The position numbers and the translations under genes are program-made. The notes below the pieces were generated by a model. The model made no database searches, had not been told where the DNA came from, and worked only from the letters and a program-made list of their open reading frames with translations. From Patescibacteria group bacterium UBA5147 (lineage in GTDB: Bacteria; Patescibacteriota; Saccharimonadia; UBA4664), in assembly GCA_002415345.1 (NCBI GenBank), contig DHXV01000003.1, positions 24,213 through 88,212 of the forward strand: 64,000 bases of DNA. The letters are read 5' to 3'. How positions within the stretch are numbered: position 1 is the first letter of the stretch; every line of letters begins with the position of its first letter. Shown piece by piece: positions 21,214 through 37,096 of the stretch.

Positions 21214-21231
21214 ACCGCCTTAATCGAGCAG

Positions 21232-21259
21232 GGAAGCCATGAAAATGGCTTCCTTTTGC
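21232..21259 (+). terminator. rho-independent terminator
   Basis: ggaagccat-gaaa-atggcttcc followed by TTTTGC. Confidence 0.55.
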
Positions 21260-21288
21260 TTGTAGCAGCATTTTGTTCTTGCAACCTG

Positions 21289-21302
21289 CTTATGCTTTAG
21301 CT
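21289..21302 (+). promoter_or_regulatory. CTTATGCT-type extended -10 promoter element (operon 21337-24446)
   Basis: ctgCTTATGCTttagct, 41 nt upstream of the start codon. Confidence 0.35.
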
Positions 21303-21336
21303 AAACTACGTTCAGTAGTGTAGTGAAAGAGGTTAT

Positions 21337-22419
21337 ATGCGGAGCTTACAGCCCCGAGCGATTTATCGAATTGTTATTATTGTGGCAATCGTACTGAGTA
21401 CGTTGTCAGTATTTACTCCTGCTTCAGCTGGGGCTGTCGGCTTTCAACAGGCGTATATCCGCCTGGACCGTCTGAAAGCCAACACGGCAACCGGTGGAAC
21501 CGTTTGTGCCACGCCGGCATCAGCTGCCACGGAAGGCAAAGTAGTTCTAACGTTTCCCTCGACCTATACTCTCAATACCACCGCGGCCAACTGGACCGTC
21601 ACAACAACCAATCTCCCGACGGGCGCCACTGCCTGGGTTGGTATTACGACTGCGACCGCCATTGATAACGTACTAAAAACCGCCACCTTTACATCGGGTG
21701 ATCTCACCGTAGCTACAGAGTACTGCTTTAATTTTTCCGGAACCACCACACTGACCACGGCTGCTAGCGCGGCCACGAACCAACAGGCGAACATTCAGAC
21801 CCAGACGAGCGGTGCAGTCGTGATTGATTTCACCAATATCGCTTTTGCCAACATTAACGATGACCAAATTCTGGTAACCGCCGTGGTCCCGCCATCGTTC
21901 AGCTTCACACTGTCCGGTAACACTGATCCGTTTGTGACCAACCTTGATGCAACCCAGGTGATTTCCACGAGTGGCAAGACAGTTACCGTCACCACCAACG
22001 CCAAAGGCGGCTGGATAGCCTGGGCTAAGGACAGCCAACAGGGCCTGCATTCAGCAACCGCCAACTACACTATCAACACTACCAGCGTGGTATCTGGTTC
22101 ACCGCCCCTAAAACAAGTTTCTGCCGGCGTCGAAGGGTACCTCCTTGATACCGATTTAACTACCGACGCAGCCAGCGGGTGTACACTTGCAATTGACACG
22201 TCTTACGGCGGTACGACTACTGGTGTACCAGTAACTTTGGCAACTGGCGGTGCCTTTAGCGCCAACTTCCAATCGATAGCTGCTTGTACGGGTGCGTCGC
22301 CAGCCTTCTCTGCCGGGGACGTGATCACCCTGATTGAGCGGGCTGCAATTACCAATGCCACGCCAGCTGCCAGCGACTATACTGATATTGTCACTGTTGT
22401 GGGCGCCGGTAACTTTTAG
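21337..22419 (+). CDS. secreted surface-subunit family protein, subfamily B
   Basis: Signal peptide. Paralog of 20095-21213 (ANWTVTTTNLP, YCFNFSGT, AVVPPSFSFTLSGNTD). C-terminus DYTDIVTVVGAGNF. Confidence 0.6.
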   Translation: MRSLQPRAIYRIVIIVAIVLSTLSVFTPASAGAVGFQQAYIRLDRLKANTATGGTVCATPASAATEGKVVLTFPSTYTLNTTAANWTVTTTNLPTGATAWVGITTATAIDNVLKTATFTSGDLTVATEYCFNFSGTTTLTTAASAATNQQANIQTQTSGAVVIDFTNIAFANINDDQILVTAVVPPSFSFTLSGNTDPFVTNLDATQVISTSGKTVTVTTNAKGGWIAWAKDSQQGLHSATANYTINTTSVVSGSPPLKQVSAGVEGYLLDTDLTTDAASGCTLAIDTSYGGTTTGVPVTLATGGAFSANFQSIAACTGASPAFSAGDVITLIERAAITNATPAASDYTDIVTVVGAGNF

Positions 22420-22443
22420 ATCATTTCTGTACAAAGGTCCTTC

Positions 22444-23505
22444 ATGAAGAAACGTTTCCTTCTTTCCCTGTCATTTATCACGCTTATTGGGGCACAAGCT
22501 CTTATCCCCCTAGTTGCTGTGGCGGTCGATTCTAAACCATTAAATCTGATAACCTCGCCGCTACCGATTAACTTGGCGACCGATCCGGGCAAAACCGTGA
22601 GCACGGATCTGAGAATTAAACAGGCCGGCGGCGACACCCAGCGCCTCAAGGTCAGCCTCATGAAATTTGCCGCCTATGGCAGCGAAGGCAAGCCCAGGCT
22701 GGTTGACCGCGGTCCGGGAGACAATTATTTTGACTGGGTAAAATTTGATAAGACCCAGTTCGACGCCCCTTCCAACGTTTGGCAAACAGTGCATATGACG
22801 ATCAACGTTCCTAAGGATGCCGCTTTTGGTTACTACTACGCCGTGGTTTTTAGCCGTGAGGGGGATGACACGCGCCAGGCCGGTAACACCAACGCCATAA
22901 ACGGTGGCACGGCCGTTTTAGTGCTGTTAGATGCCAAGGTGCCCAACGCTGTCCGCTCGCTGCAGTTAAACGCTTTTACGTCCGAACATCGGCTCTACGA
23001 GTTTTTGCCGGCCAAGTTCAAGGTCAGCTTCCACAATAGCGGGAATGTCCATCTGGTCCCGACGGGCAATATTTTCATTAGCAAAGGCAAGACTCAGGTT
23101 GCCACACTATCGATAAATGCTGAACAGGGCAATGTTCTCCCTCAATCCAACCGGGTATACGATAGTAGCTGGGGTGACGGTTACCCTCATAGTGAACCGG
23201 TGGTTGAGGGCGGAAAAACCAAAATCGACGCCAAAAACCAGGAGGTGGACCATTTGGTGTGGAGTAACGGCGAAGGCAAGGACATCACACCCCATCTACG
23301 CATGGGCAAGTATACGGCCCATTTGTTTGCCGTTTACGACGACGGCCAGCGTGACGTACCGGTAGAGAGCGAAATTAGCTTTTGGGTGATCCCGTGGCGC
23401 TTCCTCTTGGCTCTGCTGGGTGTGGCACTACTCATCGGATTCGGCGTCTACGGCTTAATCCGCGGAACCTGGAGCGGGGCGCGTAAGATAGGGCGTAAGA
23501 AATAG
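22444..23505 (+). CDS. two-Ig-domain cell-surface protein with C-terminal TM anchor (CscA/DUF916-DUF3324-like architecture), paralog 1 of 3
   Basis: Signal peptide, beta-rich ectodomain with NSGNVHLVP and GNVLP motifs. C-terminus SFWVIPW + TM + GRKK basic tail. Confidence 0.6.
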   Translation: MKKRFLLSLSFITLIGAQALIPLVAVAVDSKPLNLITSPLPINLATDPGKTVSTDLRIKQAGGDTQRLKVSLMKFAAYGSEGKPRLVDRGPGDNYFDWVKFDKTQFDAPSNVWQTVHMTINVPKDAAFGYYYAVVFSREGDDTRQAGNTNAINGGTAVLVLLDAKVPNAVRSLQLNAFTSEHRLYEFLPAKFKVSFHNSGNVHLVPTGNIFISKGKTQVATLSINAEQGNVLPQSNRVYDSSWGDGYPHSEPVVEGGKTKIDAKNQEVDHLVWSNGEGKDITPHLRMGKYTAHLFAVYDDGQRDVPVESEISFWVIPWRFLLALLGVALLIGFGVYGLIRGTWSGARKIGRKK

Positions 23506-23507
23506 CG

Positions 23508-24446
23508 GTGGCGCTCAGACGCCTGCTAATGGGACTGCTTCTAGCCGGGGGCTTGAGCATTCTGATGGCCCTGCCGGTGCGGGCAGCGAGCCAGGGGTTC
23601 ATTATTTCGCCCGCATTTCAAAGCGTCATCCTGACGGCGGGCCAGACTCACACGCAGTATGCGCTGCAGCTGACCAATTCGACACCCACGGATCAGAATT
23701 TCCGCTTGTCCGCGGTGGATTTCGGCTCGCTTGATGAAAGCGGTGGCGTAGCCTTCCTAGGAATCCCAACCAGCGAACTTGAACATCGGTATGGCTTGGC
23801 AGCCTGGATGAAACTGGGCACCAACACGGTATTTGTAGCGGCGGCGAAGAGCGTCCAGGTAATCGTGACGATTGATAACCGTGCGTCGCTGGCTCCAGGG
23901 GGCCATTATGGGGCGATTTTAGCGACGGCCGTCACCGATACCGGTAAGGATACTGCGGGTGATCCAAGGGTTAACTTGCGCCAGGTATTATCATCCCTGG
24001 TGCTGTTAACCAAAGACGGGGGGATTAACGCTGAGCTCAAACTGACCAGCCAAAGCGTTAACCGGTCCGGGCTGCGGATGCCTAGTGCTACTTCCCAACG
24101 GTTCCAAAATACCGGCAATGTGCATTTGGTACCGCGGGGCACGGTGGTAATAAAAGATCCGGCCGGACGTGTCGTGTCACGCGGAGCGCTCAATGACGGA
24201 TCCGGCACTATCTTGCCCGAGAGTTTTCGCCGCTATGACACACCTCTAATGAGCATCGGCGCCCCCTGGCTACCCGGCCGGTATCAGGCCGTCACGACCT
24301 ATCGCTACGATGGTACCGAACAAACCAAGACGTTGGCGACTAGTTTCTGGTACGTAGGACAAGGAATTGTTTGGATTGCCGCGGTGGCGGTAGTTGGTTG
24401 TGTCGGTTGGCTGGGCTGGTTTTTTTGGCGGCGCAGGCGGAGCTAA
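23508..24446 (+). CDS. two-Ig-domain cell-surface protein with C-terminal TM anchor, paralog 2 of 3
   Basis: NTGNVHLVPRG, GTILPESFRRYD. C-terminus SFWYVGQG + TM + RRRRS. Confidence 0.6.
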   Translation: MALRRLLMGLLLAGGLSILMALPVRAASQGFIISPAFQSVILTAGQTHTQYALQLTNSTPTDQNFRLSAVDFGSLDESGGVAFLGIPTSELEHRYGLAAWMKLGTNTVFVAAAKSVQVIVTIDNRASLAPGGHYGAILATAVTDTGKDTAGDPRVNLRQVLSSLVLLTKDGGINAELKLTSQSVNRSGLRMPSATSQRFQNTGNVHLVPRGTVVIKDPAGRVVSRGALNDGSGTILPESFRRYDTPLMSIGAPWLPGRYQAVTTYRYDGTEQTKTLATSFWYVGQGIVWIAAVAVVGCVGWLGWFFWRRRRS

Positions 24447-24508
24447 CTGGAAGTTGGGTTTTTCCTTATGGTTAAGCCTTATAACTCTTGTGTTTAAGTA
24501 ACAAAACC

Positions 24509-24522
24509 CTTATGCTATAAGG
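24509..24522 (+). promoter_or_regulatory. CTTATGCT-type extended -10 promoter element (giant-protein operon)
   Basis: ccCTTATGCTATAAGgg. TGn + TATAAG, embedded in the inverted repeat CCCTTAT-gct-ATAAGGG. Confidence 0.4.
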
Positions 24523-24539
24523 GTAAATGTTGTTATGGA

Positions 24540-27500
24540 GTGTATCTGCCTAATCGTCTCTCTACGAGTCGAATGTTCAAGGTAGCGGCGGTAGCCATAC
24601 GTCGGCAAAAGACAAAGGCCCTTGCGGTAACTGGTCTTTTAGGCGTTGTGCTGATTACAGCGATAAGTTCGATGCCCGCTCCGGTCATTGCCGCCGTGGG
24701 CATCAACAAAACCATCAACTTTCAGGGGAAAGTCGTCAATACCAACGGCACCAACGTGGCCAACGGCAGCTATACTTTTGTCTTCAAACTCTACACTGTT
24801 GCCAGCGCGGGAAGTGCCAACTGGACCGAATCAAAGTCGCTGACCGTAACCGACGGAGTGTTCCAGACCAACCTCGGTGACGTAACCAGCCTCCCGGGAT
24901 CGGTCGACTTCAACAGCGATAATATCTACATGGGGATTACTTTTTCGACCGATGCTGAAATGAGCCCGCGCATCCAGTTCACGGCCGCGGCTTACGCCTT
25001 TAACTCTGACCGTCTGGGAGGGATTGCGGCGGCCGGTTTCGGTCAACTTAACCCGGGGAGTGCGCAGTCCGGTTCGCTCAATGTTACCGGTAGCATTCAG
25101 GCCGCTACTTCGCTGCAGGCGCCACTGGTGGATACCGCCACGGGTGTGGCCCTGAATATCGGCACGACCACTCAGACCAGCCTGACCCTTGGGCGTAGCG
25201 GTGCGGCCTTCGTTTTGCAGGGTTCATCAACCAGCACGGTTAAAGCCACCTCGGGCGCATTTACCACCACTTTGGGATTCATTACGCCAACGGCCAATAA
25301 TACTATCAGTCTGCCGAATGAGGGGGGTACGCTGTGCATACAGAATTCCGTTAGCTGCGGGTTCCTGACGGGCGCGACTAGCGATTACGTCCAGAACACG
25401 ACAACCCAGCAGGCGAGCAGTAATTTCAATATTTCCGGCATCGGTGTTGCTGCCGTCGCAATCCAAGCACCACTTCATGCTACCGCCGATTCGGCAGTCG
25501 CCGGGACGGCAAATTTGACTCTCCGTACGGGAAATGTGACAGCCGGAAATGCCCTGTCGTCTGGGAACGTTACGATTAAGTCGGGCGACGGAACGGGTAC
25601 CAGCACCAACACCAGCACCGGAAATGTCTCGGTCGATGCCGGAGTCAAGAGCGGCAGCGGATTCGCCGGCAATTTGAATATCGGGACGATCAACGCTCCG
25701 AACGTCACGATTGGCCACAACGGCGCAACTCCTGCAACAGTTTCAATCCAGGGTGCGGCGGCCACTTCGGCTCTCATTATGTCCAATGCCGCCGGTACCT
25801 TTAGCTCGACGATTGCCTTTGCCAACCCTACCGCAACAACCACTACGACTATTAGCAATGCGGGCGGCACGGTTTGTACGACCGTATCGAGCACGTGTTC
25901 TGGGACGTACCTGGTTTCGGGCAGTTATTTGGCAAAAAATGCCGCGGATACTTCCAACGCGGGCGTTGCCGGCTATTTGCTGGGTCTCACCAACACCTCT
26001 GGAAACGTGTTGCAGCTAACTGGTGCCGGCACCGGTTCGGCACTCAGCGTGAGCCAATCCGGCAATCCGGTGGCAGGCTCGGCGGTAATTTTTGCCAACA
26101 ATACCAACGGAACACCGTCAGGCAACCTGATTGATCTGCAAGCTGTGAGCGTCAGCAAGTTCAGCGTGACAAGCGCTGGTGCCGTCACTGCTGCCAGCAC
26201 CATCAATAGCCAGACGATTTCCGCCACCGCTCAGTTTACGGGTACTGTAACATCCGCTGGTGCAGTGACGGTTCAGGCTGGCGGGATTGGAGTGACCGGA
26301 AACTCATCAATCACAGGTACGCTGGGTGTGAGTTCTAACGTCACGGTTTCGGCCGGTAACCTCACGCTGTCAAACGGCACGCTTAGCGTTACCAGTGCGG
26401 CCCAGAACTCCATCAGTGGCGGCCTGCAATTAACCGGCGGCTTGGATAATCAGAGCGGCGGCATAACTAACACCGGTGCCGTGTCCGGCGCAACCACTGT
26501 GACGGCCAACGGCACCATTACCGGCGGCGGGGCGTTCAAATCGGCCGCTGCGGCCTCAACTTCCGCGGTCACCCTGATGTCCGGCAATGCCAGCGCCGGT
26601 ACATCGGGCGACGTTACCGTGGATTCTGGAACCGCCACTTCAACAACCGGCATCGTGAACATCGGGACCTCAAATGCATCGGCTATTAATGTCGGGAACT
26701 CCACGGCTCCCGTTACGGTGCAGGGGAGTGCAACTTCGAAATTGGTGTTTGGCAACAGCACGATTAGTGCTGTCAGCTCGGCTACGGCAGCCACCTATCA
26801 ATTTGCGGCCCCCTCTAGCGCTACAACCTATAACATTTGTACCAGTGACGCCAACTCCTGTACGGCGACCTTCCTCCGCAAGAACATCGTGGGTGAACAA
26901 TCATCGGCAGGCTTGGCCGCAGGGCAATACTTGTATCAGTTCGCCAACACCGGTGCCGCCACAGCAGACGTGTTGCAGCTAAATTCTGGCACCGGCACCG
27001 GTTCAGCCCTTAAGGTAACCGCTGCCGCCAACGCTGCCGCCGGAAACGCCCTGATTTTTGCGGAACTTACTAACGCCTCTATCGGCGGCAATCTGCTGGA
27101 CCTATGGAGCGGTGCCAGCGGCAGTGAGACTAGTAAGTTTGCCGTGGCCGCCAGCGGTGCCGTCACCAGTGGCACCATTAACGGCCAGACATTGGGCGCC
27201 ACTTCACAGCTCGCAATCGTCAACACCTCTGGCCTTCTGACGGCAAACTCCCTCACGGTTACAAACACTGCCAACTTAAACAGCGCTGTAAATGTTACCG
27301 GCCTACTAAGCGCCAATGGCGGGGCCAGCGTTACCGGGGGAATTGCCAATAATGCCGGCGGGATTACTGGGGCCGGGGCAGTGAGCGGAGTAACTGGCAT
27401 TACCTTCAGTTCGGCCGGGGCAATAGATTCCAGCGCCGCCACGGCTATAAACATTGGTACAACGACAGCATCCACCGTCAACATCGGGCGGACGGCGGGA

Positions 27501-28550
27501 TCGTTGTCATTGCAGGGCGCGGCCGCGAGCACTACGCTGGCCGGATCTAACGGTGGCTTTACGACAACGGTTGGTTTCGCCAACCCGATGGCGGCGGTAA
27601 TTTATCAATTCGCCACGGCTACCGCCGGTACTTACCAGCTGTGCTCGACCTACGCGTCAACCTGTGGGAGCACCTACGCGCCCTTTTACGGTGCCGGGTA
27701 TGTTCAGCTGGCACCAGGCTCGGCCCAAACTGATACTTCAACCAATACTGCGTTATTCATTAATAAAACTGCCGGAACTTCGTTGGTTAACTTGCAGGCT
27801 TCGGGGTCAACGGTATTCAATGTCCAGACTAACGGCACAGCCTATCTGGGAGGAGACTCAGCCTCGGCTGCCTTTATGGTGGACACGACCAGTTTCCGCG
27901 TCAAAGTAGGAACAGGCACGCCGAGCCAGTCCGGGGGCACCAACAACGCCACCACTGGGCTATATGTCAGTGGCACCACGGAGCTCGCAGGGTTGGTATT
28001 TATTGGAACCGCGGCCAACAACGCTTCCTTTAGTAATGCCACCAAGGAAGTAACATTCAACGGAACCGCGCGTCACGCCAGGACCTTACGCCTGATTGCC
28101 GAATACGCTGGCGCAGTGCTTGATACCGGTGGAGCCTCCACCGTCAATGGAATTATGACTGCCAGTTTTGATGCTGCGGCATCGCCGACCATGAGCTATT
28201 ACAAATGGACTACCAGCCAGGCAACCAACCAGAGCTATGACGTCGTAGTTACCGTACCGGTGCCTGAAGATTGGGGAGCCTGGAACGGCAACGCGACAAT
28301 CGTGAACTATGGTAGCGGAACCGGAGTATCGGAATCCGTCACCGTTTATGACACTGCCAATGCTATCGATACCAATATCAATACTTCAGCTCTGACGGTG
28401 GCAGGAGCGTGGTCGACCAGAACCCTCCCGGCATATGCAGGAACGTATACGGCTGGTGGGGTAATGAAGCTGCGCATCCATATGGTATCCGGTGCCGGCG
28501 GTGACGTAAGGTTGGGCACAATCTCCTTGCCTTATTTGAGCAAGTGGTAG
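24540..28550 (+). CDS. giant secreted Gly/Thr/Ala/Asn-rich repeat fibre protein (1336 aa)
   Basis: Signal peptide, likely from MFKVAAVAIRR at 24573. Internal tandem modules of about 330 aa (e.g. LQLTGAGTGSALSVSQSGNPVAGSAVIFANNTNG vs LQLNSGTGTGSALKVTAAANAAAGNALIFAELTNA). Four repeats carry a Cys pair (GT[LV]C...S.C). Distinct C-terminal globular domain ending LPYLSKW. Confidence 0.7.
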   Translation: MYLPNRLSTSRMFKVAAVAIRRQKTKALAVTGLLGVVLITAISSMPAPVIAAVGINKTINFQGKVVNTNGTNVANGSYTFVFKLYTVASAGSANWTESKSLTVTDGVFQTNLGDVTSLPGSVDFNSDNIYMGITFSTDAEMSPRIQFTAAAYAFNSDRLGGIAAAGFGQLNPGSAQSGSLNVTGSIQAATSLQAPLVDTATGVALNIGTTTQTSLTLGRSGAAFVLQGSSTSTVKATSGAFTTTLGFITPTANNTISLPNEGGTLCIQNSVSCGFLTGATSDYVQNTTTQQASSNFNISGIGVAAVAIQAPLHATADSAVAGTANLTLRTGNVTAGNALSSGNVTIKSGDGTGTSTNTSTGNVSVDAGVKSGSGFAGNLNIGTINAPNVTIGHNGATPATVSIQGAAATSALIMSNAAGTFSSTIAFANPTATTTTTISNAGGTVCTTVSSTCSGTYLVSGSYLAKNAADTSNAGVAGYLLGLTNTSGNVLQLTGAGTGSALSVSQSGNPVAGSAVIFANNTNGTPSGNLIDLQAVSVSKFSVTSAGAVTAASTINSQTISATAQFTGTVTSAGAVTVQAGGIGVTGNSSITGTLGVSSNVTVSAGNLTLSNGTLSVTSAAQNSISGGLQLTGGLDNQSGGITNTGAVSGATTVTANGTITGGGAFKSAAAASTSAVTLMSGNASAGTSGDVTVDSGTATSTTGIVNIGTSNASAINVGNSTAPVTVQGSATSKLVFGNSTISAVSSATAATYQFAAPSSATTYNICTSDANSCTATFLRKNIVGEQSSAGLAAGQYLYQFANTGAATADVLQLNSGTGTGSALKVTAAANAAAGNALIFAELTNASIGGNLLDLWSGASGSETSKFAVAASGAVTSGTINGQTLGATSQLAIVNTSGLLTANSLTVTNTANLNSAVNVTGLLSANGGASVTGGIANNAGGITGAGAVSGVTGITFSSAGAIDSSAATAINIGTTTASTVNIGRTAGSLSLQGAAASTTLAGSNGGFTTTVGFANPMAAVIYQFATATAGTYQLCSTYASTCGSTYAPFYGAGYVQLAPGSAQTDTSTNTALFINKTAGTSLVNLQASGSTVFNVQTNGTAYLGGDSASAAFMVDTTSFRVKVGTGTPSQSGGTNNATTGLYVSGTTELAGLVFIGTAANNASFSNATKEVTFNGTARHARTLRLIAEYAGAVLDTGGASTVNGIMTASFDAAASPTMSYYKWTTSQATNQSYDVVVTVPVPEDWGAWNGNATIVNYGSGTGVSESVTVYDTANAIDTNINTSALTVAGAWSTRTLPAYAGTYTAGGVMKLRIHMVSGAGGDVRLGTISLPYLSKW

Positions 28551-28555
28551 GGTTG

Positions 28556-31500
28556 ATGCCAAAATTTTCAACGGTTAAGCTTAGGACTATGCCTGGGCTT
28601 CTTCGAATTATCTATCGCCAAAAAAAACCGGTTCATCTGGCAACTCTTGGACTCATTCTTGGCGCAATTATCGCTCCCATTATCAGCCAACTGGTCATTA
28701 ACCAACAATATCGGCTCAGTTCCGACATCACCGCCTTGACCGCCCCGCGCACCCCCAAACTTGAGGCAAAAATGATGCGCGATGAATCTAACAAGCAGAC
28801 GTCTTTCAATGCCTCGGCGAATACGGCGAGCAAAGACAAGCTCCAGTCAAAGATTGGTGCCGGCACATCCGACCAGCTTTATTCGGTAGTGTTCCCTGAC
28901 GACAGCCGCAAAGGCATAACCATCACCGACAACGTCAATCAAGTTGATGTGGTGATGACCCCACGGTTTAAAACCAGTGAGGCACGGTTATCGGATGGCA
29001 GAGTAATATATCCGACCGCAATCAGTTCGGCCAGGCTGGTTTATACCCCCGCGTCCGACGGGCTCAAAGAAGATATCGTCATCGATTCCAAGCCGGGCCA
29101 AGACACTTTGTCTTTTGCCTATGATCTGAAACTTCCGGATTATTTAGAAGCCAGGATGATGCCCGACGGCTCTCTGGGAGTGTATTCCGGGGCACCGGAA
29201 CTGTTCGGGGCGATGTCATACGGCAGTGATAATGATCGTGCCACCATCACTAAGGCGCGCCAGAACGCCGCCAAGAATTATTTGATGTTCGCCATTCCTG
29301 CCCCGGTCGTAAAACAGACGGGTAAGCCGTCTCGGGCTGTGGCGTCCCGTTTCGAATTCAAAGCCGGTGTCCTCACTGTAATAACAACCGGATTGGGTCA
29401 GGCTTCATATCCGTTAACTATCGACCCGACATTCTTTATTTCCAGCAGCAGCGACTTTGACGCCGGTACCGGTGAGGAGGACCTCGACTACAGCGTAGCC
29501 GGGCAAATCGGCCGGGCGGCCCTTACGGGCGGGGCGGTTAACAGCTGGACCGCAACTAATACGTTACCGAACGCCCAGTGGGGGGTATCATCAGCCGGGT
29601 ACAACAATTACTTGTACACGACCGGGTCGTACCAGGGATCAATGTACACCTCCCATGCGCCGGTCAATTCCAACGGCTCACTTGGCACGTGGGTATCGGA
29701 CGGGGTCACTTATACTCCCGGCAAAATCGGCTCTCGCATGGTTGCCTATAATGGCTATTTATACACGCTGGGTGGCGAAGATAGCTCAACGCACACGCAG
29801 TATGCGACCGTGTTGTACTCGAAAATCGATGCGATAACGGGCGCTGCCGGTACCTGGAACAGCACTACCGGTTTCTCCGGGGCGCGGGCGTTCTTTGGTG
29901 CGGTGGTTTATAAGGGTTACATCTACCTGATGGGCGGTGGCCAGGGCGCTAATGAAACGGCCGCCAGCGACGTGCAGTATGCCAAAATCAATGGTGACGG
30001 AACTTTGGGTACCTGGGCGACCACTACGGCCTTGTCGAGCGCGCGCGAAGGGTTGGCTGCCACTGCGCAGAACGGCTGGCTTTATGTGACCGGTGGCCGG
30101 AGCGGTACGTCCGCATCCACTAACGCAAAGACTACGGACGTGTATCGGGCTGCTCAAAATGCCAACGGAACACTCGGGAGCTGGGCACAGACCACCTCAT
30201 TTAATACGGCGCGACGGGACCATCAGATATCCATTAACAATAACTATATGTATATTACGGGCGGTTGTACCGCCACGGGGGCAGATCCCTGCACCACGCT
30301 GGCTGCTGACACACAATATGCCCCAGTTTATGCTGATGGTACCGTAGGAACCTGGACAGCCAGCGCCAACATCACGACGGCGAGGGATCAGGCCGGAATG
30401 GCCGCCTACCGGGGAAATCTGTATGTAGTGGGCGGCTGCTCTGCCGAAACGGCCGGTCCGGCTTGCGGTACCAGCGATGCTAATGCTTTGGGCAGCGTCC
30501 AATACTCCTCCCTGGCGGCTGCTGGCAACATGGCATCAGCAGCGGCATCCGGAAGCACCTTTACGACGGCCCGCCACTCTCAGCTGACAACGGTTTACGA
30601 CGGGTATATGTACGTCGCCGGTGGTTGCGCGGTAAACACTTGCTCTGCCGTTCTCAGTGATACCTATTACGCTTCCGTAGCGGCTGATGGAACAATTGGC
30701 ACTTGGACCGCGACCGGAACCTTGCCCTCGACCGCTAACGACCAGCCTGGTCGGATGGCCTCATGCATGGTCGGGTATAACGGGCGGCTATACATCGTCG
30801 GGGGAGGGCAACTGCACAATGGTAACAACAACCTGGAAACGGTAAGCGACACCGTGGTTGGGGTAATTGGAGCGAGTGGCGCAGTAAGCAGCTGGACAAC
30901 TGGTACGGGAGGATCGCTGCCGGTCAACTCCTGGTATCATTCCTGCGAAACCTACAACGGCTACATCTATGTTATCGGTGGCACGACCTCGACTACCGCG
31001 ACCTACCGCACTACTATATATTACGCCACACTCAACGCTGATGGTTCCTTCGGGACTTTTGCCACCACCACCAATACCTTTGCCACGGGACGTAACAGCC
31101 AGGCCTCCGCGGTTTGGCATGGCTATCTCTACATTGGCGGAGGGTATACGGGCAGTGCGTATTTGAACGATATCCAATATGCGAAAATGGGTAATGCCGG
31201 CGACATTACGAGTACTTTTGCAACCGCCGGAAACACGTTTACGCAAACCCGCAGATTCCTGACGATGGTTGCTACCAACGCCGTGTTATATGTATACGGA
31301 GGCTATACCGGGTCGGCGGTTAGGAGCGATGTACAGTACTCTACCCTGGATCCGACGACAGGTGCACCTGGCACTTTCACAACATCAGGATCGACGCTAT
31401 CGACTGCCCGCTGGGGGACAGGCACGTCATACCGTGGTGTCTTATATCTGGTGGGTGGATGCACGACCGCCAACTGCACCGGTTTCTCAAACGTAACTGA

Positions 31501-32965
31501 TATTTTACAGACTAACAACGGCGGTAACGGCCAGACGGCGACCTGGACGACAAGCGGCTCAAATTATACTACGGCTCGCGTCGACTTCATGAGCGTGGCG
31601 TATAACGGCTTCGTTTATGTAATGGGCGGATGCGCCGCGTTCGGCAATGGTAACGGCACTTGCACCAATACTCTAACCACCGTGTGGGCCGCACCAATCA
31701 ATGCTGACGGCTCGCTGGGCACCTGGGTTGCCGCGACTGCGCTTCCGTCAGCCCGGTACAGCGGCTCAGTGGTGGCTTATAATAACCGGATCTATGTGAT
31801 TGCTGGCAGCAGTGGTGCTACGGCACTTTCAAGCGTAATTTACACCCAACAGGCAGCAAATGGCACTCTGGGCGCCTGGCAGACGGTAGCTGCCAATGAT
31901 ATGCCCGGCGGAGCGGCCCGATATGACGGTGATGCCACATTGTATGGATCTTATATTTACGTAGGGTCGGGTTATAACGGAACCGCCCAACTGAGTGACA
32001 TTTATTACGCTCAAATTACCACGGCCGGAAACCTGGCGGCCAACTCTGGCTGCGGTACTACTTGGTGCACAGGTACTTCATTCACTACCATACGGCGTAG
32101 TGCCTCTCTATTCGCATATAACGGTACCCTCTATATTGCCGGAGGGGTGTCCGGAACGACAACCCTGCGTGACGTGCAATACGCTCCAATTAACTCCAAC
32201 GGCACCATTGGGACTTGGAATTACACCAATGCCATTGAAAGCGGTATCATCGACATTCCGGTGGTCGGCTCAAACGGATACATATATATGATGGGAACGG
32301 CGCGCGACACCAGCGACATTACTTATTTTGCGGTGAGTGCCAACGGCACTCTGGGGCAGTCTGCCAACAGTAACGCCAAGATGGCCGCCAACCACTCGCG
32401 AGGATCGGCCGTTACCAACGCCGGTTTCGTCTACGTTCTGGGTGGCTGTACCACGCTCGGGACGGGCGGGGACTGCACCACTATGAACCAGACGATTGAA
32501 TATACCGGACAGCAGGCATCCGCGCGTATCGGCCGTTATGCCAGGCTATTTAGTACCGGTGCCGACACTGCCCCCTCACAGGTGGTCATGAATGGTACAC
32601 TATCAAGTTACAACTCGGCGGTTCAACTCTCTTTCCAGACCGCTAGCCAGGCCGACCCGGTGCTGGGTTTAGCTCAAATCATCAATCCGGTGGTGTTTAA
32701 TACCAACTACTCAGTCCTGGCACTGGATACCAGCGGAACTAACGTCGGCGTGGCCTACAACTATTTCCTAGAATTACTTCTGGATGACTCCGCGTCCAGT
32801 TCCTTCCCGGATGTGCCAACATCAGGGACCCAGACGTCAATCAACAATTTTATCCTGTACTACCATGCCAACCCCGGCCGACGGCTACGACACGGTGCCA
32901 GCTTCAACGATACTAGCTGCTCCGACACCCCGGCCACAGGCTGTGTCTTGGACACGGCCCCGTAG
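28556..32965 (+). CDS. giant surface protein with arrays of Kelch-type beta-propeller repeats (about 1470 aa)
   Basis: Signal-anchor HLATLGLILGAIIAPIISQLVI. At least 20 repeats of the form YNGYLYTLGG, YKGYIYLMGG, NGWLYVTGG, YRGNLYVVGG, YDGYMYVAGG. Tracked GTG 28544 overlaps the upstream stop; ATG 28556 is the likely start. Confidence 0.7.
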   Translation: MPKFSTVKLRTMPGLLRIIYRQKKPVHLATLGLILGAIIAPIISQLVINQQYRLSSDITALTAPRTPKLEAKMMRDESNKQTSFNASANTASKDKLQSKIGAGTSDQLYSVVFPDDSRKGITITDNVNQVDVVMTPRFKTSEARLSDGRVIYPTAISSARLVYTPASDGLKEDIVIDSKPGQDTLSFAYDLKLPDYLEARMMPDGSLGVYSGAPELFGAMSYGSDNDRATITKARQNAAKNYLMFAIPAPVVKQTGKPSRAVASRFEFKAGVLTVITTGLGQASYPLTIDPTFFISSSSDFDAGTGEEDLDYSVAGQIGRAALTGGAVNSWTATNTLPNAQWGVSSAGYNNYLYTTGSYQGSMYTSHAPVNSNGSLGTWVSDGVTYTPGKIGSRMVAYNGYLYTLGGEDSSTHTQYATVLYSKIDAITGAAGTWNSTTGFSGARAFFGAVVYKGYIYLMGGGQGANETAASDVQYAKINGDGTLGTWATTTALSSAREGLAATAQNGWLYVTGGRSGTSASTNAKTTDVYRAAQNANGTLGSWAQTTSFNTARRDHQISINNNYMYITGGCTATGADPCTTLAADTQYAPVYADGTVGTWTASANITTARDQAGMAAYRGNLYVVGGCSAETAGPACGTSDANALGSVQYSSLAAAGNMASAAASGSTFTTARHSQLTTVYDGYMYVAGGCAVNTCSAVLSDTYYASVAADGTIGTWTATGTLPSTANDQPGRMASCMVGYNGRLYIVGGGQLHNGNNNLETVSDTVVGVIGASGAVSSWTTGTGGSLPVNSWYHSCETYNGYIYVIGGTTSTTATYRTTIYYATLNADGSFGTFATTTNTFATGRNSQASAVWHGYLYIGGGYTGSAYLNDIQYAKMGNAGDITSTFATAGNTFTQTRRFLTMVATNAVLYVYGGYTGSAVRSDVQYSTLDPTTGAPGTFTTSGSTLSTARWGTGTSYRGVLYLVGGCTTANCTGFSNVTDILQTNNGGNGQTATWTTSGSNYTTARVDFMSVAYNGFVYVMGGCAAFGNGNGTCTNTLTTVWAAPINADGSLGTWVAATALPSARYSGSVVAYNNRIYVIAGSSGATALSSVIYTQQAANGTLGAWQTVAANDMPGGAARYDGDATLYGSYIYVGSGYNGTAQLSDIYYAQITTAGNLAANSGCGTTWCTGTSFTTIRRSASLFAYNGTLYIAGGVSGTTTLRDVQYAPINSNGTIGTWNYTNAIESGIIDIPVVGSNGYIYMMGTARDTSDITYFAVSANGTLGQSANSNAKMAANHSRGSAVTNAGFVYVLGGCTTLGTGGDCTTMNQTIEYTGQQASARIGRYARLFSTGADTAPSQVVMNGTLSSYNSAVQLSFQTASQADPVLGLAQIINPVVFNTNYSVLALDTSGTNVGVAYNYFLELLLDDSASSSFPDVPTSGTQTSINNFILYYHANPGRRLRHGASFNDTSCSDTPATGCVLDTAP

Positions 32966-33000
32966 ACAGTACTTTGCGGACGACAGTTTGTTATCCGAGG

Positions 33001-33918
33001 CTATTGGGTTACGAAGTAGTCGAAAGCGAGCACTGAGCCGGCCGGAGGGGGAGAATCGGTACGTATCTGGAATCCGGAGGAAGTGCGGTTTACGTAGACA
33101 GGAGTTGCGGCGCTTGCCCCGGTAAGCGGCGACAGCAGAACATGGACGCCACCGGTGAAGCCCGCGCGGAAGGTAACCGAGGCCAAGATTCCGGCTGCCG
33201 TGCCGCTGCCGGTGTTAACGTTAACGGTACCCGCAGTGTCGTTACCGCTGATGTTAACCGTTCCGCCGCCGCCAATGGCGCTTCCGGCCGTGATTCCCGG
33301 GGTTGCGCCTTGGGTGCGCAGATGTCCGATGGTCAGAGGCCCGGCAATGGAAATAGTTTGCGTGGAAATGGATTGCGTGTTCAGCGTGTTGACGCTGGCT
33401 GCTCCGCTCACATTGAGGCCGCCATTCACTGACAGTAACTGAGAAACTGTCAGTCCTTTAAGCAGGGTGGTTGTTCCTGATACCGTTAGATTGGACCCCA
33501 CGCTCAGTCCGGAAAGTGCGGTGGTGCCGCTGATATTAAGCTCACTCAAGGTTACTGGCCCGTTGGCATTGAAATGGCCGCCCACACTAAGGTCGCCGGC
33601 GACGTCCAATTTCCCGCGGAACAGGGAATTGGCGCCAATATTAAGGGTCTGGTTGGAGTTACCCAGGCTGGTGCTGACGTCGGTAAGCTTTTGGATATCT
33701 TCCTGACTCAAGGTCTGGACCTGGGTTTTAGCGGGAACAGCCGTTTTCTTGGTACTCAGCGAATAAAAGTATCCCACCACAGCCCCGACGAATAACACGC
33801 AGATGAGCAGCGCGACAACGGTTGAAATATTGTTGGCCCGCCTGATCATGCGCGACCATGAACGCCCCTCCTTACGGGGCGGCGGGTTTGTGGGGGTTGG
33901 CAGTGTGGTAGGGGGCAT
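33001..33918 (-). CDS. membrane-anchored beta-helical repeat protein (paralog 2 of 2)
   Basis: 305 aa. Basic N-terminus, TM, LNISGTTALSGLSVGSNLTVSGTTTLL beta-helix-like repeats. C-terminus VLAFDYFVTQ matching 16180-17286. Confidence 0.55.
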   Translation of the reverse strand: MPPTTLPTPTNPPPRKEGRSWSRMIRRANNISTVVALLICVLFVGAVVGYFYSLSTKKTAVPAKTQVQTLSQEDIQKLTDVSTSLGNSNQTLNIGANSLFRGKLDVAGDLSVGGHFNANGPVTLSELNISGTTALSGLSVGSNLTVSGTTTLLKGLTVSQLLSVNGGLNVSGAASVNTLNTQSISTQTISIAGPLTIGHLRTQGATPGITAGSAIGGGGTVNISGNDTAGTVNVNTGSGTAAGILASVTFRAGFTGGVHVLLSPLTGASAATPVYVNRTSSGFQIRTDSPPPAGSVLAFDYFVTQ

Positions 33919-33950
33919 TTGGGTAAATTCTCTTATCTATCAATATAGCG

Positions 33951-33966
33951 CTTATGCTCCTACAAT
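33951..33966 (+). promoter_or_regulatory. CTTATGCT-type promoter element in the divergent region 33919-34035
   Basis: gcgCTTATGCTcCTACAATcc. Confidence 0.35.
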
Positions 33967-34035
33967 CCAACTCTACAATCGTTAATTAGCCTAAGCGGTT
34001 TGAAAATATCATTGGTATAGGCCATTATAGATAAC

Positions 34036-34800
34036 ATGAGACGATTGCGAATTGTAGGAGTATACGCCCTGGCCGGCATAATTGGCTGGCCCACCGCGGC
34101 CCTGGCCGTGACCCCGGGCGACCCGTCATTCAGGTCGACTAACTACAGTATCAACGAGAGCTATATTGGACCGGGCGGGGACAGCCAGGGCATCTCCACC
34201 AGCTATAAGACTCAAGGCTCAACCTTGGGAGATACCGGCGTAGGTAATTCCGGCTCGGCCAACTTTCAGGCCAACAGCGGTTATGACACCACCAACGATC
34301 CGCGGTTGAGTTTTACCGTTAACACGGCTTCCGCCGATTTAGGCGTTCTGTCCACGTCTGTGGCGTCTACGGCCACGGCTACCTTCAGTGTCCTCAATTA
34401 CACGTCGTACGGGTACGTCGTTTCTATGGTGGGAAGTCCGCCTAGTAATAGCGGGCATCCGCTGTCTGCCCTTGCAACCGATACTGCCAGTGCTAACGGG
34501 GTGGAACAATTTGGAATTAACCTGGTTGCCAACACGAGCCCGGTGTCGGTAGGAGCTAACCCGGTTCAGGACGTCAGCGGTTCCACCACATTTGGTTTTG
34601 GGCGCGCCGGTACCGGCGCCGGCACGGCCTATGCTCAAACTAATTTGTATCGATACGTTCCCGGCGAAACCATCGCCTCGGCACCAAAATCCTCTGGCAT
34701 AACCAACTACACGATGTCGTTTATGGCCAACATGAGTACCACGACTCCAGGTGGCAAATACTCGGGTCCCATGACGCTCATTTGTACCGGTACATACTAA
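34036..34800 (+). CDS. secreted surface-subunit family protein, subfamily A
   Basis: Signal peptide. STNYSINESYIGPGG...SANFQANSG N-terminus (paralog of 18889-19953), FGINLVANTSP. C-terminus YSGPMTLICTGTY. Confidence 0.6.
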   Translation: MRRLRIVGVYALAGIIGWPTAALAVTPGDPSFRSTNYSINESYIGPGGDSQGISTSYKTQGSTLGDTGVGNSGSANFQANSGYDTTNDPRLSFTVNTASADLGVLSTSVASTATATFSVLNYTSYGYVVSMVGSPPSNSGHPLSALATDTASANGVEQFGINLVANTSPVSVGANPVQDVSGSTTFGFGRAGTGAGTAYAQTNLYRYVPGETIASAPKSSGITNYTMSFMANMSTTTPGGKYSGPMTLICTGTY

Positions 34801-34823
34801 TTAATGTCACTAACATAAGCGGG

Positions 34824-34852
34824 TTGACCTGGTAATTATTCTTATGCTAATA
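34824..34852 (+). promoter_or_regulatory. sigma70-like promoter with CTTATGCT extended -10 (subfamily C operon)
   Basis: -35 TTGACC, 17-nt spacer, cttaTGcTAATAT. Confidence 0.45.
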
Positions 34853-34893
34853 TTCATGCATTAGTATGGTCATAAAAGGGAATTGAATTAACC

Positions 34894-36012
34894 ATGAAAA
34901 ACGTATCAATTAAATTAAAGGACTTGCGTCGGAAACTGGCCGTATGGGCTTCCGTTGTTGCTATGGCATCGATGGCATTGCTTCCAGGCGCTGCTAGTGC
35001 AGCCGGCCAATTGACTGCTCGTAAGACCGTGCTTACTAGTTCGGCAGCTGCCGCAGTGACAACTTACGTCACCACATTCACTATGGGAACCGCCGGCCAA
35101 ACGCTGGGTTCCTTAAAAGTTGAACTATGCGACTCGCCGCTTCAAACTGCCTCGTGTGTCAACACTGGTAGCTCCTCCGGCGTTAGCATGTCTGCTGCCG
35201 CTTTAACTGGCGTTACCGGTGCAGTTGGAACGGGTACCTGGACTATAGGTACCAGAACCGCTAATTCCGCCCTGGTTAACAAGTCCACAAACGATGTTCA
35301 GACCGCTAACCCAACCCTGGTTGTAACCTTGACCACCATTACGAACCCAACGGCGATCAACTCGCCATTCTATCTCCGCGTTTCAACCTACACAGCTACA
35401 GCCGGTGGTGGAACTAATACCGACTTTGGTGCCATGGCACTGTCTACTACCCAATCATTAACTGTTTCAGCCAACGTTCAGGAAAGTCTGACCTTCTGCA
35501 CTGGCACCAACGTTGCTTCAACGAGCTGTGGTGATATCACTGGCAGCACCGTTAGCGTCGGCACTGGTACCGACAACATCCTATCGACATCACCATCGGG
35601 TGGAGTATCCGTCATGTACGCGGCTACCAACGGCACCAGTGGGTACTCCGTTACCTACTTTGCCGCGAACTTCTCGTCTTCTAGCGACACCATTGCGTCC
35701 AACGGTGCTGTCAAAGCCGCCTTACCGGCAGTCGGAACCGCCGCCTTCGGTATCAACCTGGCTGCCAACGCGACGCCGTCAATTACCGGTTCTTCCGCAG
35801 TCTCTGGTGCCGGTTCAGGCGCCGTGGATGCCAACTACAACACCGCAAACCAATTCGCTTTTGTACCCTCGGCAGCATCGGCCGTGGCTTCAGCGGCCGG
35901 GCCTACCCTCATAAACAAGTACGTCGTGTCATACGCCGGTCAAGCTGGCAGCACGACCAAGCCTGGCGCCTTCTCGACAGTCTTCACCTACGTCGCTACC
36001 GCCACTTTCTAA
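34894..36012 (+). CDS. secreted surface-subunit family protein, subfamily C
   Basis: Signal peptide, conserved Cys pair (ELCDSPLQTASC; LTFCTGT), FGINLAANATP. C-terminus FSTVFTYVATATF. Confidence 0.6.
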   Translation: MKNVSIKLKDLRRKLAVWASVVAMASMALLPGAASAAGQLTARKTVLTSSAAAAVTTYVTTFTMGTAGQTLGSLKVELCDSPLQTASCVNTGSSSGVSMSAAALTGVTGAVGTGTWTIGTRTANSALVNKSTNDVQTANPTLVVTLTTITNPTAINSPFYLRVSTYTATAGGGTNTDFGAMALSTTQSLTVSANVQESLTFCTGTNVASTSCGDITGSTVSVGTGTDNILSTSPSGGVSVMYAATNGTSGYSVTYFAANFSSSSDTIASNGAVKAALPAVGTAAFGINLAANATPSITGSSAVSGAGSGAVDANYNTANQFAFVPSAASAVASAAGPTLINKYVVSYAGQAGSTTKPGAFSTVFTYVATATF

Positions 36013-36058
36013 GACTCTCTCTCGTTATTCTAGTAACCATTAACGACTGAAGCCAATC

Positions 36059-37096
36059 GTGAAAATAAACCGACTCATTTTAAAAGCCATTCTTGTCGCA
36101 ACTGCGGTATCCATACTACCGCTTGCGGCCATGGCAACAGAGGTAACCGATCGGAGTATTACGTTAGGTTCCTCTGCCCCGGGAGCTATAACGACCCATA
36201 CTTTCGGCCTCACCGTACCGAGCACTGCAAATGTTGGATCCATTGAGTTCAAATATTGCACCACACCCCTCGGTGCCTGCACCACCCCCGCGGGCCTCGT
36301 TACCACCGTCGCGTCGCTAATAAACCAGACGGGTGCTACAGGCTTCAGTGTAGTCAACACTAATAACGGCACGCCGTACATTTCACGCGGTTCCGCCAGT
36401 ATTCCGGCGACAACGCAAGTCACATATCAGTTCTCCGGTGTAACCAACCCGTCAGGGGTGAACGTCGAATATTGGGTCCGGGTTAACACCTACGCGAGCA
36501 TCGACACCACCGGTTCCCCTATAGATGGCGGAGTCGTCGACTTTGTTACCACAAGTGATATCACCGTTTCAGGAATCATGCCTGAATCACTGATCTTCTG
36601 CGTCGGAACCAGTGGCACCAGTTGTGCCAATATTACCGGTAGTGCCGTGAGTCTTGGAATTTTCAGTCCGGCTCTTACCAACACGGGTACCAGTGTGATG
36701 AGTGCCAGTACTAACGCCTCATTCGGATACACTATCGCGCTGGCTGGAAGTACTCTCAGTTCCGGGGCCAATACTATTACATCCATGGGGCAGCAGTCTC
36801 AGAACGGTACGGCCTCGGCGTCGGCCGTTGGGACAAGCCAGTTCGGAACGAATCTTAGAGCTAACTCAACACCACCTGTCGGAGCGAACGTGAGTGGTTT
36901 GGGCACAGGAGTAGTCGTAGGCGGGTATAATGTCGTCGATAATTTCCGCTACTTCTCAGGTGATACTTTGGCTAACGCGGGTGGCCCGGTCAACGATAAT
37001 CTCTTCACGAACTCATACATCGTCAACGTGAGCCCCGATCAGGCGGCCGGAGTCTATACCGCTACCATGACCTACATTTGTACGGCGACCTTCTAA
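36059..37096 (+). CDS. secreted surface-subunit family protein, subfamily C
   Basis: GTG start. Signal peptide, FKYCTTPLGACTTPAGLVTT, LIFCVGT, FGTNLRANSTP. C-terminus YTATMTYICTATF. Confidence 0.6.
   Translation: MKINRLILKAILVATAVSILPLAAMATEVTDRSITLGSSAPGAITTHTFGLTVPSTANVGSIEFKYCTTPLGACTTPAGLVTTVASLINQTGATGFSVVNTNNGTPYISRGSASIPATTQVTYQFSGVTNPSGVNVEYWVRVNTYASIDTTGSPIDGGVVDFVTTSDITVSGIMPESLIFCVGTSGTSCANITGSAVSLGIFSPALTNTGTSVMSASTNASFGYTIALAGSTLSSGANTITSMGQQSQNGTASASAVGTSQFGTNLRANSTPPVGANVSGLGTGVVVGGYNVVDNFRYFSGDTLANAGGPVNDNLFTNSYIVNVSPDQAAGVYTATMTYICTATF

Follow-up and report, generated by a model that had tools for sequence, protein, structure and literature searches.

How the episymbiotic bacteria of the Candidate Phyla Radiation (CPR; Patescibacteria) choose and bind their hosts is largely an open question; the published genetics of oral strains points to type IV pili, a type IV secretion system (T4SS) and a few unnamed 'adhesins' (PMC10633639, PMC11665869). 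The question is raised in concrete form by a 64,000-nucleotide stretch of DNA, here called the window, from Patescibacteria group bacterium UBA5147, a member of the Saccharimonadia (contig DHXV01000003.1, positions 24,213 to 88,212 of the forward strand; all coordinates below are those of the window). Two giant genes follow one another on its plus strand, namely gene 1 (24573..28550), encoding an apparently secreted modular fibre of 1325 residues, and gene 2 (28556..32965), encoding a Kelch-repeat protein of 1469 residues. What do these proteins do, and do they do it together? Our preferred reading, to which we assign a probability of about one half, is that they constitute a conserved two-gene module whose products form a surface complex of fibre and head, with an exchangeable specificity cassette.

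A first-pass annotation, made from the letters of the window, had taken the pair for a stalk and a ligand-binding head as in adhesins of episymbionts. The lineage is borne out, in that all named homologues of either giant protein come from metagenome-assembled genomes (MAGs) of Candidatus Saccharimonadia/Saccharibacteria; the few homologue-bearing bins named otherwise are probably contaminated, and Moranbacteria MAGs contribute some proteins that have the N-terminal domain of gene 1 only. By these comparisons both genes are members of uncharacterised families restricted to Saccharimonadia. Scanning the GTDB species-representative genomes recovered 65 distinct loci; the locus maps mark any Kelch-rich open reading frame (ORF), and the adjacency count from ORFs uses a hidden Markov model (HMM) restricted to the N-terminal domain of gene 2. 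With tblastn, the C-terminal domain of gene 1 is found directly upstream, on the same strand, of 38 of the 62 informative gene 2-like genes, and with HMMs applied to ORFs the gene directly upstream ends in this domain at 31 of 48 species-level loci (the reverse count, 33 of 40, is inflated through locus sampling). The order rplU, fibre, Kelch recurs in many genomes, one pair of homologues carries the adjoining locus tags VMT30_00205 and VMT30_00200, and in the Saccharimonadia MAG at locus L001 the same order extends over ~23 kb, the gene for a 2255-residue fibre stopping one base before that for a 1528-residue Kelch protein. On this comparative evidence gene 1 and gene 2 are a conserved two-gene unit.

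The two components also occur within single chains. In homologue P0081 a signal peptide and the gene 1 N-domain are joined to a fibre and to a single Kelch propeller of six blades, while the gene 1 C-domain and both end domains of gene 2 are missing. The same three domains are absent from three further proteins that combine the gene 1 N-domain with Kelch repeats (L007:111-4739, L010:74-5695 and P0103), the ORFs of which are N-terminally truncated and differ in Kelch content, with ~10 blade motifs in L010:74-5695. The domains missing from these fusions are the very ones expected to be dispensable if they mediate a non-covalent joining of separate chains. The picture of stalk and head thus agrees with the conserved pairing and with the single-chain relatives.

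The unit of exchange is seen in a comparison with the closest relative, GCA_038244585.1 (locus L002), which has ~74% DNA identity to the window over 16181-27837 and 33037-34511 and no DNA homology to it over 27838-33036. The left breakpoint (27837..27838, plus strand) falls at residue ~1088 of gene 1, and homology resumes at the right breakpoint (33036..33037); correspondingly, the two fibre proteins are ~85% identical up to residue ~1090 and ~40% beyond it. From the DNA gap and the drop in identity it follows that the replaced segment comprises gene 2 in its entirety together with the C-domain of the fibre. The C-domain in L002 is a divergent allele of the same domain, ending in ...IRFDYRASF, and the 1782-residue partner that follows matches no Pfam family, and BLASTP finds neither of its ends similar to gene 2; it was considered as a relative of gene 2 and rejected, as it shares neither of the gene 2 end domains. 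Two other fibres with an IRFDYR-type end, P0005 and P0011, are each followed by an orthologue of this non-Kelch partner, the three partners being 53-60% identical among themselves, so that subtype and partner match in 3/3 cases, and the LPYLSKW-type C-domain of the window goes with Kelch partners. The correspondence between C-domain subtype and partner is, from the sequences, strong and not one-to-one, and on the same footing the fibre C-domain is inherited together with the partner gene, the two being exchanged as a single cassette.

The alternative partner is a distinctive protein in its own right. It is encoded at L002:13938-19286, L069:13068-18335 and L070:6702-11933, is ~1750 residues long, has no Pfam match, and carries many ~50-60-residue repeats of the form G.PW[VI]SYYD..N..L[RK]VA.YVG.GG.GC....W.C..VDN...G.Y.S[IL]AFD, with a Cys pair in each, which may represent a new β-propeller-like repeat family. 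Its signal peptide ends in a site of signal-peptidase type, which is PPxAxA in the L069 and L070 proteins, clear too in the partners of P0005 and P0011, and PPAANA in the L002 partner.

Gene 1 has no match in Pfam, NCBIfam, PHROGs or the sequences of the Protein Data Bank (PDB), and its composition (T 15%, A 15%, G 13%, S 12%) is that of the Gly/Thr-rich repeat fibre described in the first-pass annotation. It opens with a putative signal peptide (24573..24692, plus strand, residues 1-40), read by eye from the sequence as RRQKTK, a hydrophobic core and PAPVIA before AVG. A conserved N-domain follows (24690..25049, plus strand, residues ~40-160; INFQGK...PRI.FTAAAYAFN), whose profile finds nothing in the PDB and which is 55-80% identical in scores of CPR proteins with differing remainders, these being CBM_4_9, Peptidase_S74, LamG_3, H_lectin, pectate-lyase-type or Kelch domains. 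Peptidase_S74 is a chaperone of trimeric phage fibres. The fibre body (25050..27665, plus strand) consists of four modules, at residues ~150-262, 263-442, 443-763 and 764-1031, each of which closes with ...PN.GGT.C-x6-C. All eight cysteines of the protein are in these four pairs (255/262, 435/442, 756/763 and 1024/1031), an arrangement met in 0 of 20,000 random placements; the four copies of a Cys-pair motif noted earlier are therefore present, but the pattern given for them, GT[LV]C-x5-[SN]-x-C, is one residue off the C-x6-C spacing and matches 0/4. Likewise, the tandem duplication of a ~330-residue module is real, but the copies, 443-763 and 764-1031, are 321 and 268 residues long. They are recognised as duplicates by Smith-Waterman local alignment (z=20 against shuffles), and self-BLASTP did not show the internal duplication; the two shorter N-terminal modules have only the module end in common with the long ones. 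Through differing module numbers the fibres of homologues range from 430 to ~3260 residues. Two minus-strand paralogues elsewhere in the window (16180-17286 and 33001-33918) contain G/T/S/N-rich β-helix-like repeats that resemble the fibre body.

The C-domain of gene 1 (27945..28547, plus strand, residues ~1125-1325; EYAGAVLD...YYKWTT...LPYLSKW) is conserved; the first-pass annotation had singled it out as a unique C-terminal domain (LPYLSKW). In an AlphaFold2 model of residues 126-1325, built from an alignment of 35 sequences, the last 185 residues form a β-sandwich of jelly-roll type with a predicted local distance difference test score (pLDDT) of 75-97. Foldseek relates this sandwich to carbohydrate-binding modules (CBM4/6/11/22/61), MAM domains, domain III of Cry toxins and the C-terminal domains of the phage tailspikes K2-2 TSP and CBA120 TSP4, at E ~2e-4 and target template-modelling (TM) scores of at most 0.6. 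In a library of viral structures the sandwich aligns locally with tail-fibre and minor-tail proteins of phages (140-180 columns, root-mean-square deviation ~5 Å); the long top matches in that library were discarded, since their deviation exceeds 35 Å and reflects the unstructured fibre. The CBM_4_9 matches in homologues P0014, P0018 and P0256 were likewise set aside, as they sit in internal domains and not in a gene 1-type C-domain.

Gene 2 begins, after RQKK, with a hydrophobic segment (28634..28699, plus strand, residues ~27-48) that would be either a signal anchor or a cleavable signal peptide. Throughout the family the N-terminus is basic at first and then hydrophobic for 16-27 residues, among them a conserved Pro, and RYxL follows within ~10 residues; a consistent AxA site after the hydrophobic segment was not seen across the family. 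The N-domain (28709..29557, plus strand, residues 52-334, ~290 residues) bears the invariant motifs NGLKEDIV, IPAPV and YPLxIDP and is modelled as a β-sandwich with one long helix (pLDDT 84, predicted TM score 0.78). It is followed by 18 Kelch blades (29588..32566, plus strand, residues 345-1337) spaced 49-63 residues apart, several of which have a Cys pair in the loop following the GG motif, and by a conserved, family-specific C-domain (32567..32962, plus strand, residues ~1338-1469; LDDS...FPD...RLRHG.F...LDTC) whose profile finds nothing in the PDB. The Kelch assignment is secured by Pfam (PF24681, 131 bits against a cut-off of 50, E=5e-38; PF01344, 74.6 against 20.1, E=4e-21; PF13964, 49.9 against 25.3) and by phmmer matches to solved six-bladed Kelch propellers in the PDB, with E down to 1e-15. 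The earlier description of a propeller of at least 20 blades was thus correct as to the repeats but not as to their number, which is exactly 18 both here and in the consensus of 49 family members. Since the best Pfam and PDB matches are six-bladed and the 18 blades are spaced at 49-63 residues, the natural reading of the sequence is three six-bladed propellers. A search of the PHROGs yields one match for gene 2, to a group of unknown function, via the Kelch repeats. In some Saccharimonadales, at loci L011, L027, L036, L030 and L034, two gene 2-like Kelch genes stand in tandem or divergently, with a fibre gene before the first only, which suggests a duplication of the head gene.

Is gene 2 then an enzyme that merely happens to lie beside an unrelated adhesin? 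On this explanation the neighbours would act independently, gene 2 perhaps as a carbohydrate-active or mutarotase-like protein. Like NanM and galactose oxidase, gene 2 has Kelch blades, here read as six-blade units, and the source annotation of its relatives, assigned automatically, is 'N-acetylneuraminic acid mutarotase' (NanM); the NANM family PF24996 matches P0124 above the gathering cut-off (53.2 against 45) and P0121 below it (24.8 against 45), and the gene 2 N-domain has Foldseek matches, too weak for us to assign its fold, to the N-terminal sandwiches of the glycoside hydrolases GH92, GH95 and GH98 (E 5e-3, TM score at most 0.31). However, PF24996 has no match in gene 2, Pfam and NCBIfam reveal no catalytic family at threshold in it, and, unlike NanM and galactose oxidase, it has 18 blades in a single chain with a family-specific domain on each side. 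The joint replacement of fibre C-domain and partner in L002, the agreement of subtype and partner in all three cases, and the fused single-chain relatives also speak against independence, which we regard as a rather unlikely explanation.

The pattern of a variable C-terminal domain followed by a co-varying downstream gene is found in two further kinds of system. One is the polymorphic toxin, a filamentous exoprotein with a variable C-terminal toxin and an immunity gene, for which the formal pattern alone speaks. The C-domain, however, is a CBM-like jelly roll rather than a toxin fold and is 30-55% conserved across species, the downstream product is an apparently exported 1469-residue propeller protein and not a small cytoplasmic immunity protein, and Pfam finds no pre-toxin motifs, Rhs/YD repeats or secretion partners, so that this explanation is effectively refuted. 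The other is the long tail fibre of phages, with which a tip adhesin or assembly protein encoded downstream co-varies, as in gp37/gp38 of T4 and the fibre-Tfa pairs of Mu and P2. As in such fibres, the N-terminal part is conserved, the breakpoint falls just before the C-terminal domain and the downstream gene is exchanged with it; the C-terminal jelly roll has modest fold matches to tail-fibre and tailspike domains, and relatives of the N-domain bear Peptidase_S74. In contrast to phage fibres, the pair sits in a core chromosomal region between rplU and parAB with no phage genes nearby, an apparent Sec-type signal stands at the N-terminus of each protein, the partner is a Kelch protein of 1469 residues, read as a triple propeller, rather than a small adhesin or chaperone, and gene 1 has no PHROG match. 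In its mode of action the pair would come closest to a phage tail fibre whose tip partner co-varies, and its gene surroundings are related to the WxL/Csc clusters discussed below, although by sequence it is a member of neither.

On our preferred reading, the two proteins would build a non-covalent complex of fibre and head at the cell surface of environmental Saccharimonadia. Both proteins appear from their sequences to be exported, with N-terminal hydrophobic signals and the paired cysteines usual in extracellular proteins (four C-x6-C pairs in gene 1, loop pairs in the blades of gene 2). The exported fibre would have at its N-terminus a 'base' found in many other proteins, then disulfide-clasped modules in varying number, and finally the C-terminal jelly roll; the base is placed next to the cell because the N-domain recurs in proteins whose distal binding modules are diverse, and the fibre is possibly trimeric, an oligomer being suggested by the Peptidase_S74-bearing relatives and the poor monomer model. 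Gene 2 would provide a large β-propeller body, made of the N-domain, three six-bladed Kelch propellers and the C-domain. The fibre C-domain would be the docking site for this partner, because that domain is passed on, and swapped, together with the partner gene. The propellers and the CBM-like jelly roll may bind surface glycans of other cells, in host recognition or adhesion, and exchange of the cassette would shift the specificity. Partner docking, glycan binding, adhesion, oligomeric state and the anchored end are thus features that we infer. A bolder version, which we offer tentatively as the less probable form, is that the pair is a cell-encoded analogue of the receptor-binding module of phages, in which a base-anchored, probably trimeric fibre has its C-domain and propeller head swapped, thereby setting the host bacteria or glycans to which the cell attaches. 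The head types, Kelch, the non-Kelch repeat protein of ~1750 residues and possibly RCC1 in oral strains, would then be alternative host-range alleles.

Several observations weigh against this reading. About one third (~35%) of gene 2-like genes are without a detectable C-domain gene upstream when HMMs are applied to ORFs, which would also favour independent action of the two neighbours. In a mirror-tree comparison the gene 1 C-domain and the gene 2 N-domain correlate at r=0.68, and the N-domain control, 0.61, is barely lower. A third C-domain subtype, ending in ...INFTMKGK, also pairs with a Kelch partner, being followed by a 190-residue ORF and then by a gene 2-like Kelch protein. As to structure, the fibre body was modelled by AlphaFold2, as a monomer, at pLDDT <50 and with short-strand β repeats alone, and the fold matches of the C-domain are modest (E ~1e-4, TM score at most 0.6). 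If gene 2 is truly membrane-anchored, the simple geometry with the head at the tip fails. Lastly, in the cultivated epibiont Southlakia epibionticum ML1, which has a comparable cluster, SEML1_0626, SEML1_0627 and SEML1_0628 are all listed as non-essential in transposon sequencing (PMC10633639); to the extent of that listing, laboratory growth as an epibiont does not in general depend on such clusters.

The gene neighbourhood brings in what we rank as the main rival explanation. Two tandem genes (22444..24446, plus strand, with starts at 22444 and 23508) directly upstream of gene 1 encode proteins of 353 and 312 residues, and a third paralogue of the same family lies at 38199-39203; each has a signal peptide, two β domains and, at the C-terminus, a transmembrane (TM) helix followed by a basic tail. 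A profile built from these proteins retrieves 9701 cluster representatives from a library clustered at 50% identity, and of 100 of these that were scanned 50 match PF06030 (WxLIP_PGBD, formerly DUF916; best E 2.6e-10) and 23 match fn3_5; the three proteins of the window themselves have no PF06030 match. In Bacilli, the published WxL clusters combine a WxLIP with small WxL proteins and a large protein that bears its WxL domain at the C-terminus (PMC9772566, PMC10599100). In the definition of Hassan and Williamson such a cluster has at least one WxLIP and at least two WxL proteins within four genes, an LPXTG protein being frequent and not obligatory, and a WxLIP is a protein of ~320-380 residues with a signal peptide, DUF916 (PF06030), a second Ig-like domain and a C-terminal TM helix. 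The WxLIP side of the neighbourhood is, by sequence, supported at the family level.

The locus might accordingly specify a peptidoglycan-associated complex of WxL/Csc type, with gene 1 as the 'large WxL protein' in reversed polarity: its C-domain would be a cell-proximal anchor, held by the WxLIP-like proteins or by a membrane-anchored gene 2, and its N-domain would face outward. Resemblances to the clusters of Bacilli (PMC1534035, PMC9772566, PMC10599100) are several. The WxLIP (DUF916) relatives of 312-353 residues have the expected signal peptide, two β domains and TM segment, with two of their genes directly upstream of gene 1 and a third in the locus; seven small secreted paralogues accompany them; and there is a large multi-domain secreted protein with a distinctive C-terminal domain, the position in which the large protein of the published clusters always has its defining domain (PMC9772566, PMC10599100). 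The layout with WxLIP-like genes is moreover retained at loci L001, L002, L005, L009, L069 and L071. Against this, the WxL domain PF13731 has no match in gene 1, in the seven small paralogues (E up to 10) or in 16 family members, and no WxL motif is present; an LPXTG-type C-terminal signal is absent from every real ORF of the window, and hence no LPXTG protein is encoded in the locus. We also considered the gene 1 C-domain as a WxL-like relative of the small secreted paralogues and rejected this, as hhalign finds no relation. The locus further differs from WxL/Csc clusters in its extra giant propeller protein and in belonging to the CPR rather than the Firmicutes; the fibre-Kelch pair often stands without WxLIP genes, most Saccharimonadales pairs following rplU with none nearby; and the gene 1 N-domain is common to proteins with typical distal binding C-termini, which argues for the N-terminus as the common base. 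We therefore hold this explanation to be unlikely, while placing it ahead of the other rivals.

The cluster of Southlakia epibionticum ML1, SEML1_0623-0628, bears on the same explanation. In Tables S1/S2 of Wang et al. 2023 (PMC10633639), the annotation of SEML1_0626 is DUF916, the best Foldseek match of SEML1_0627 is to a WxL domain protein, and SEML1_0628 is a giant surface protein with two seven-bladed RCC1 propellers and Ig/FN3 domains. As listed there, a Saccharibacterium thus has a DUF916, a WxL-like and a giant two-propeller protein side by side, an adjacency that favours a WxL-type complex and recalls the present locus. In contrast to the latter, the propellers are RCC1 and not Kelch, and those tables report no fibre with the gene 1 N- or C-domains and no Kelch protein in the proteome. 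The cluster is not discussed in the main-text section of that paper on essential envelope functions (PMC10633639).

A structural rather than adhesive role deserves to be weighed at this point. The pair might be an envelope scaffold of S-layer type, with a membrane-anchored propeller as the base and the fibre outermost, loosely like SlaB/SlaA. The gene 2-like family is very widespread in Saccharimonadia and conserved over its full length (460 matches), the position beside rplU is conserved, the hydrophobic segment of gene 2 lies close to its first domain, and surface-exposed parts differ between close relatives, all of which would suit a scaffold. A scaffold is harder to reconcile with fibre lengths that vary from 430 to 3260 residues between species, with a partner replaceable by an unrelated protein, and with the proteome table of the cultivated Southlakia, which lists no Kelch protein. 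We consider it improbable, more so than independent action of the two proteins.

These arguments presuppose that the genes are read and assembled correctly. Counted from GTG codons, the two ORFs are 24540-28550 (1336 residues) and 28544-32965 (1473 residues), on the same strand and both uninterrupted. The start of gene 1 is likely to be ATG 24573 rather than GTG 24540, because the alignments of homologues begin at that Met with the homologues' first residue. For gene 2 the candidate starts are GTG 28544, ATG 28556 and ATG 28589; a public annotation of an independent contig took the last of these, and ahead of none of the three did we see a convincing Shine-Dalgarno sequence. The stop codon of gene 1 (TAG 28548-28550) does lie within the reading from GTG 28544, and an ATG is present at 28556, as the first-pass annotation stated, but with three candidate starts the overlap itself is not established. 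The case for the translational coupling deduced from it is weakened by the ambiguous start, the lack of a convincing Shine-Dalgarno sequence and the absence of a conserved overlap among relatives, in which the projected gap between the two genes ranges from -34 to ~300 nt with a median of ~90. A scan for promoter-like and terminator-like sites revealed none at the junction, as would suit an operon, the counts being at or below chance.

The concern that the repeats might be artefacts of assembly is not substantiated. There are no tandem or long direct DNA repeats within 24540-32965, from which it follows that the internal protein repeats are old and diverged rather than produced by the assembly. 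An independent contig in the European Nucleotide Archive (ERZ27248657 k119_164831, 2763 nt) is collinear with the window over 27403-30138, with one single-nucleotide difference and no gaps; it independently confirms the junction of gene 1 and gene 2, and for the parts that it covers neither a collapse of repeats nor a pseudogene is supported, the frames of both genes being unbroken. The 5' end of this contig (L068:1-27) is an untrimmed Nextera transposase adapter (…AGATGTGTATAAGAGACAG), a contamination in the deposited assembly.

Before gene 1, in the 126-nt gap that separates it from the upstream WxLIP-like gene, lies a hairpin (24506..24524, plus strand, ACCCTTATGCTATAAGGGT) with a perfect 8-bp stem and a 3-nt loop. 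On both strands it is among the sites picked up by the terminator-like scan, whose total is not above shuffle expectation, and it could mark the end of the upstream WxLIP operon or be an RNA element. The pair as a whole is contained in a block (17376-40180) of exported proteins without Pfam matches that looks like two paralogous sub-clusters (16180-24446 and 33001-40180). The β-helix-like TM proteins on the minus strand, at 16180-17286 and 33001-33918, are N-terminally anchored and share the conserved end AFDY[WF]V[IT]Q; their relatives adjoin fibre or Kelch genes at loci L001, L003, L005, L009, L017 and L023. Each sub-cluster also has one PKD/TM protein (17376-18317 and 39227-40180) with two TM segments and an HHxSGRLRxH N-terminus. 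In these the order is a His-rich motif (HHRHSGRLRPHHETSY and HHHSGRLRHHSHTSY, respectively), a TM segment, a Glucodextran_B/Big_13-like domain, a PKD-like domain and a C-terminal TM segment, Pfam matches to PKD being obtained in 39227-40180 only and not in 17376-18317; by its sequence, the His-rich motif may bind metal or serve as a processing signal. The small secreted paralogues, 250-390 residues long with F or Y as the last residue, start at 18889, 20053 and 21337 in the first sub-cluster and at 34036, 34894, 36059 and 37078 in the second. The WxLIP-like genes complete the sub-clusters, those at 22444 and 23508 the first and that at 38199 the second.

The surroundings are those of an ordinary chromosome, with a flat GC content of ~0.55 along the window. 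The locus is preceded by ftsA, ftsZ, ribonucleotide reductase, ileS, ftsW/rodA and rplU, and followed by parA, parB, lytR, htrA, prfA, a proS-type synthetase, a class-I lysS and a penicillin-binding protein. The position near the origin and the 'pilin-like' paralogues had prompted consideration of a T4SS context, which was rejected, as a scan of 30 ORFs revealed neither VirB4 nor another ATPase. The 526-residue protein encoded at 14142-15722 bears a zinc-ribbon-like CxxC...CxxC at its N-terminus, then a linker rich in Pro and Ala, a TM segment and a large extracytoplasmic part without a Pfam match, and its C-terminal region resembles pseudopilin or pilin-like sequence (RDIQRQTDLRSVQKGLEEYF). 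The lysyl-tRNA synthetase at 61221-62897 is of class I type (PF01921), which is uncommon among bacteria generally; it is consistent with the CPR and was not used for the assignment.

In the literature searched we found no paper that ties Kelch, WxL/DUF916 or giant fibres to the surface structures of Saccharibacteria, and no main-text discussion of a WxL-type surface-complex system in the CPR, beyond the rows of the Southlakia supplement. As far as that literature goes, the thousands of relatives of the WxLIP family on the CPR side, and their presence in Saccharibacteria beside giant propeller proteins, are new. Apart from Kelch, the module is built wholly of domains without Pfam families, and it is widespread in environmental Saccharimonadia. 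It displays the signature expected of a specificity determinant, in that the base is conserved and the tip domain is replaced along with its partner from one genome to another of ~74% DNA identity. It thus represents an undescribed and widespread candidate for host recognition in an uncultured lineage, with a function that we infer. If the reading is true, it would provide a concrete candidate for the determination of host range, and the combination of C-domain subtype and partner type would be a sequence marker from which host associations could be predicted in metagenomes.

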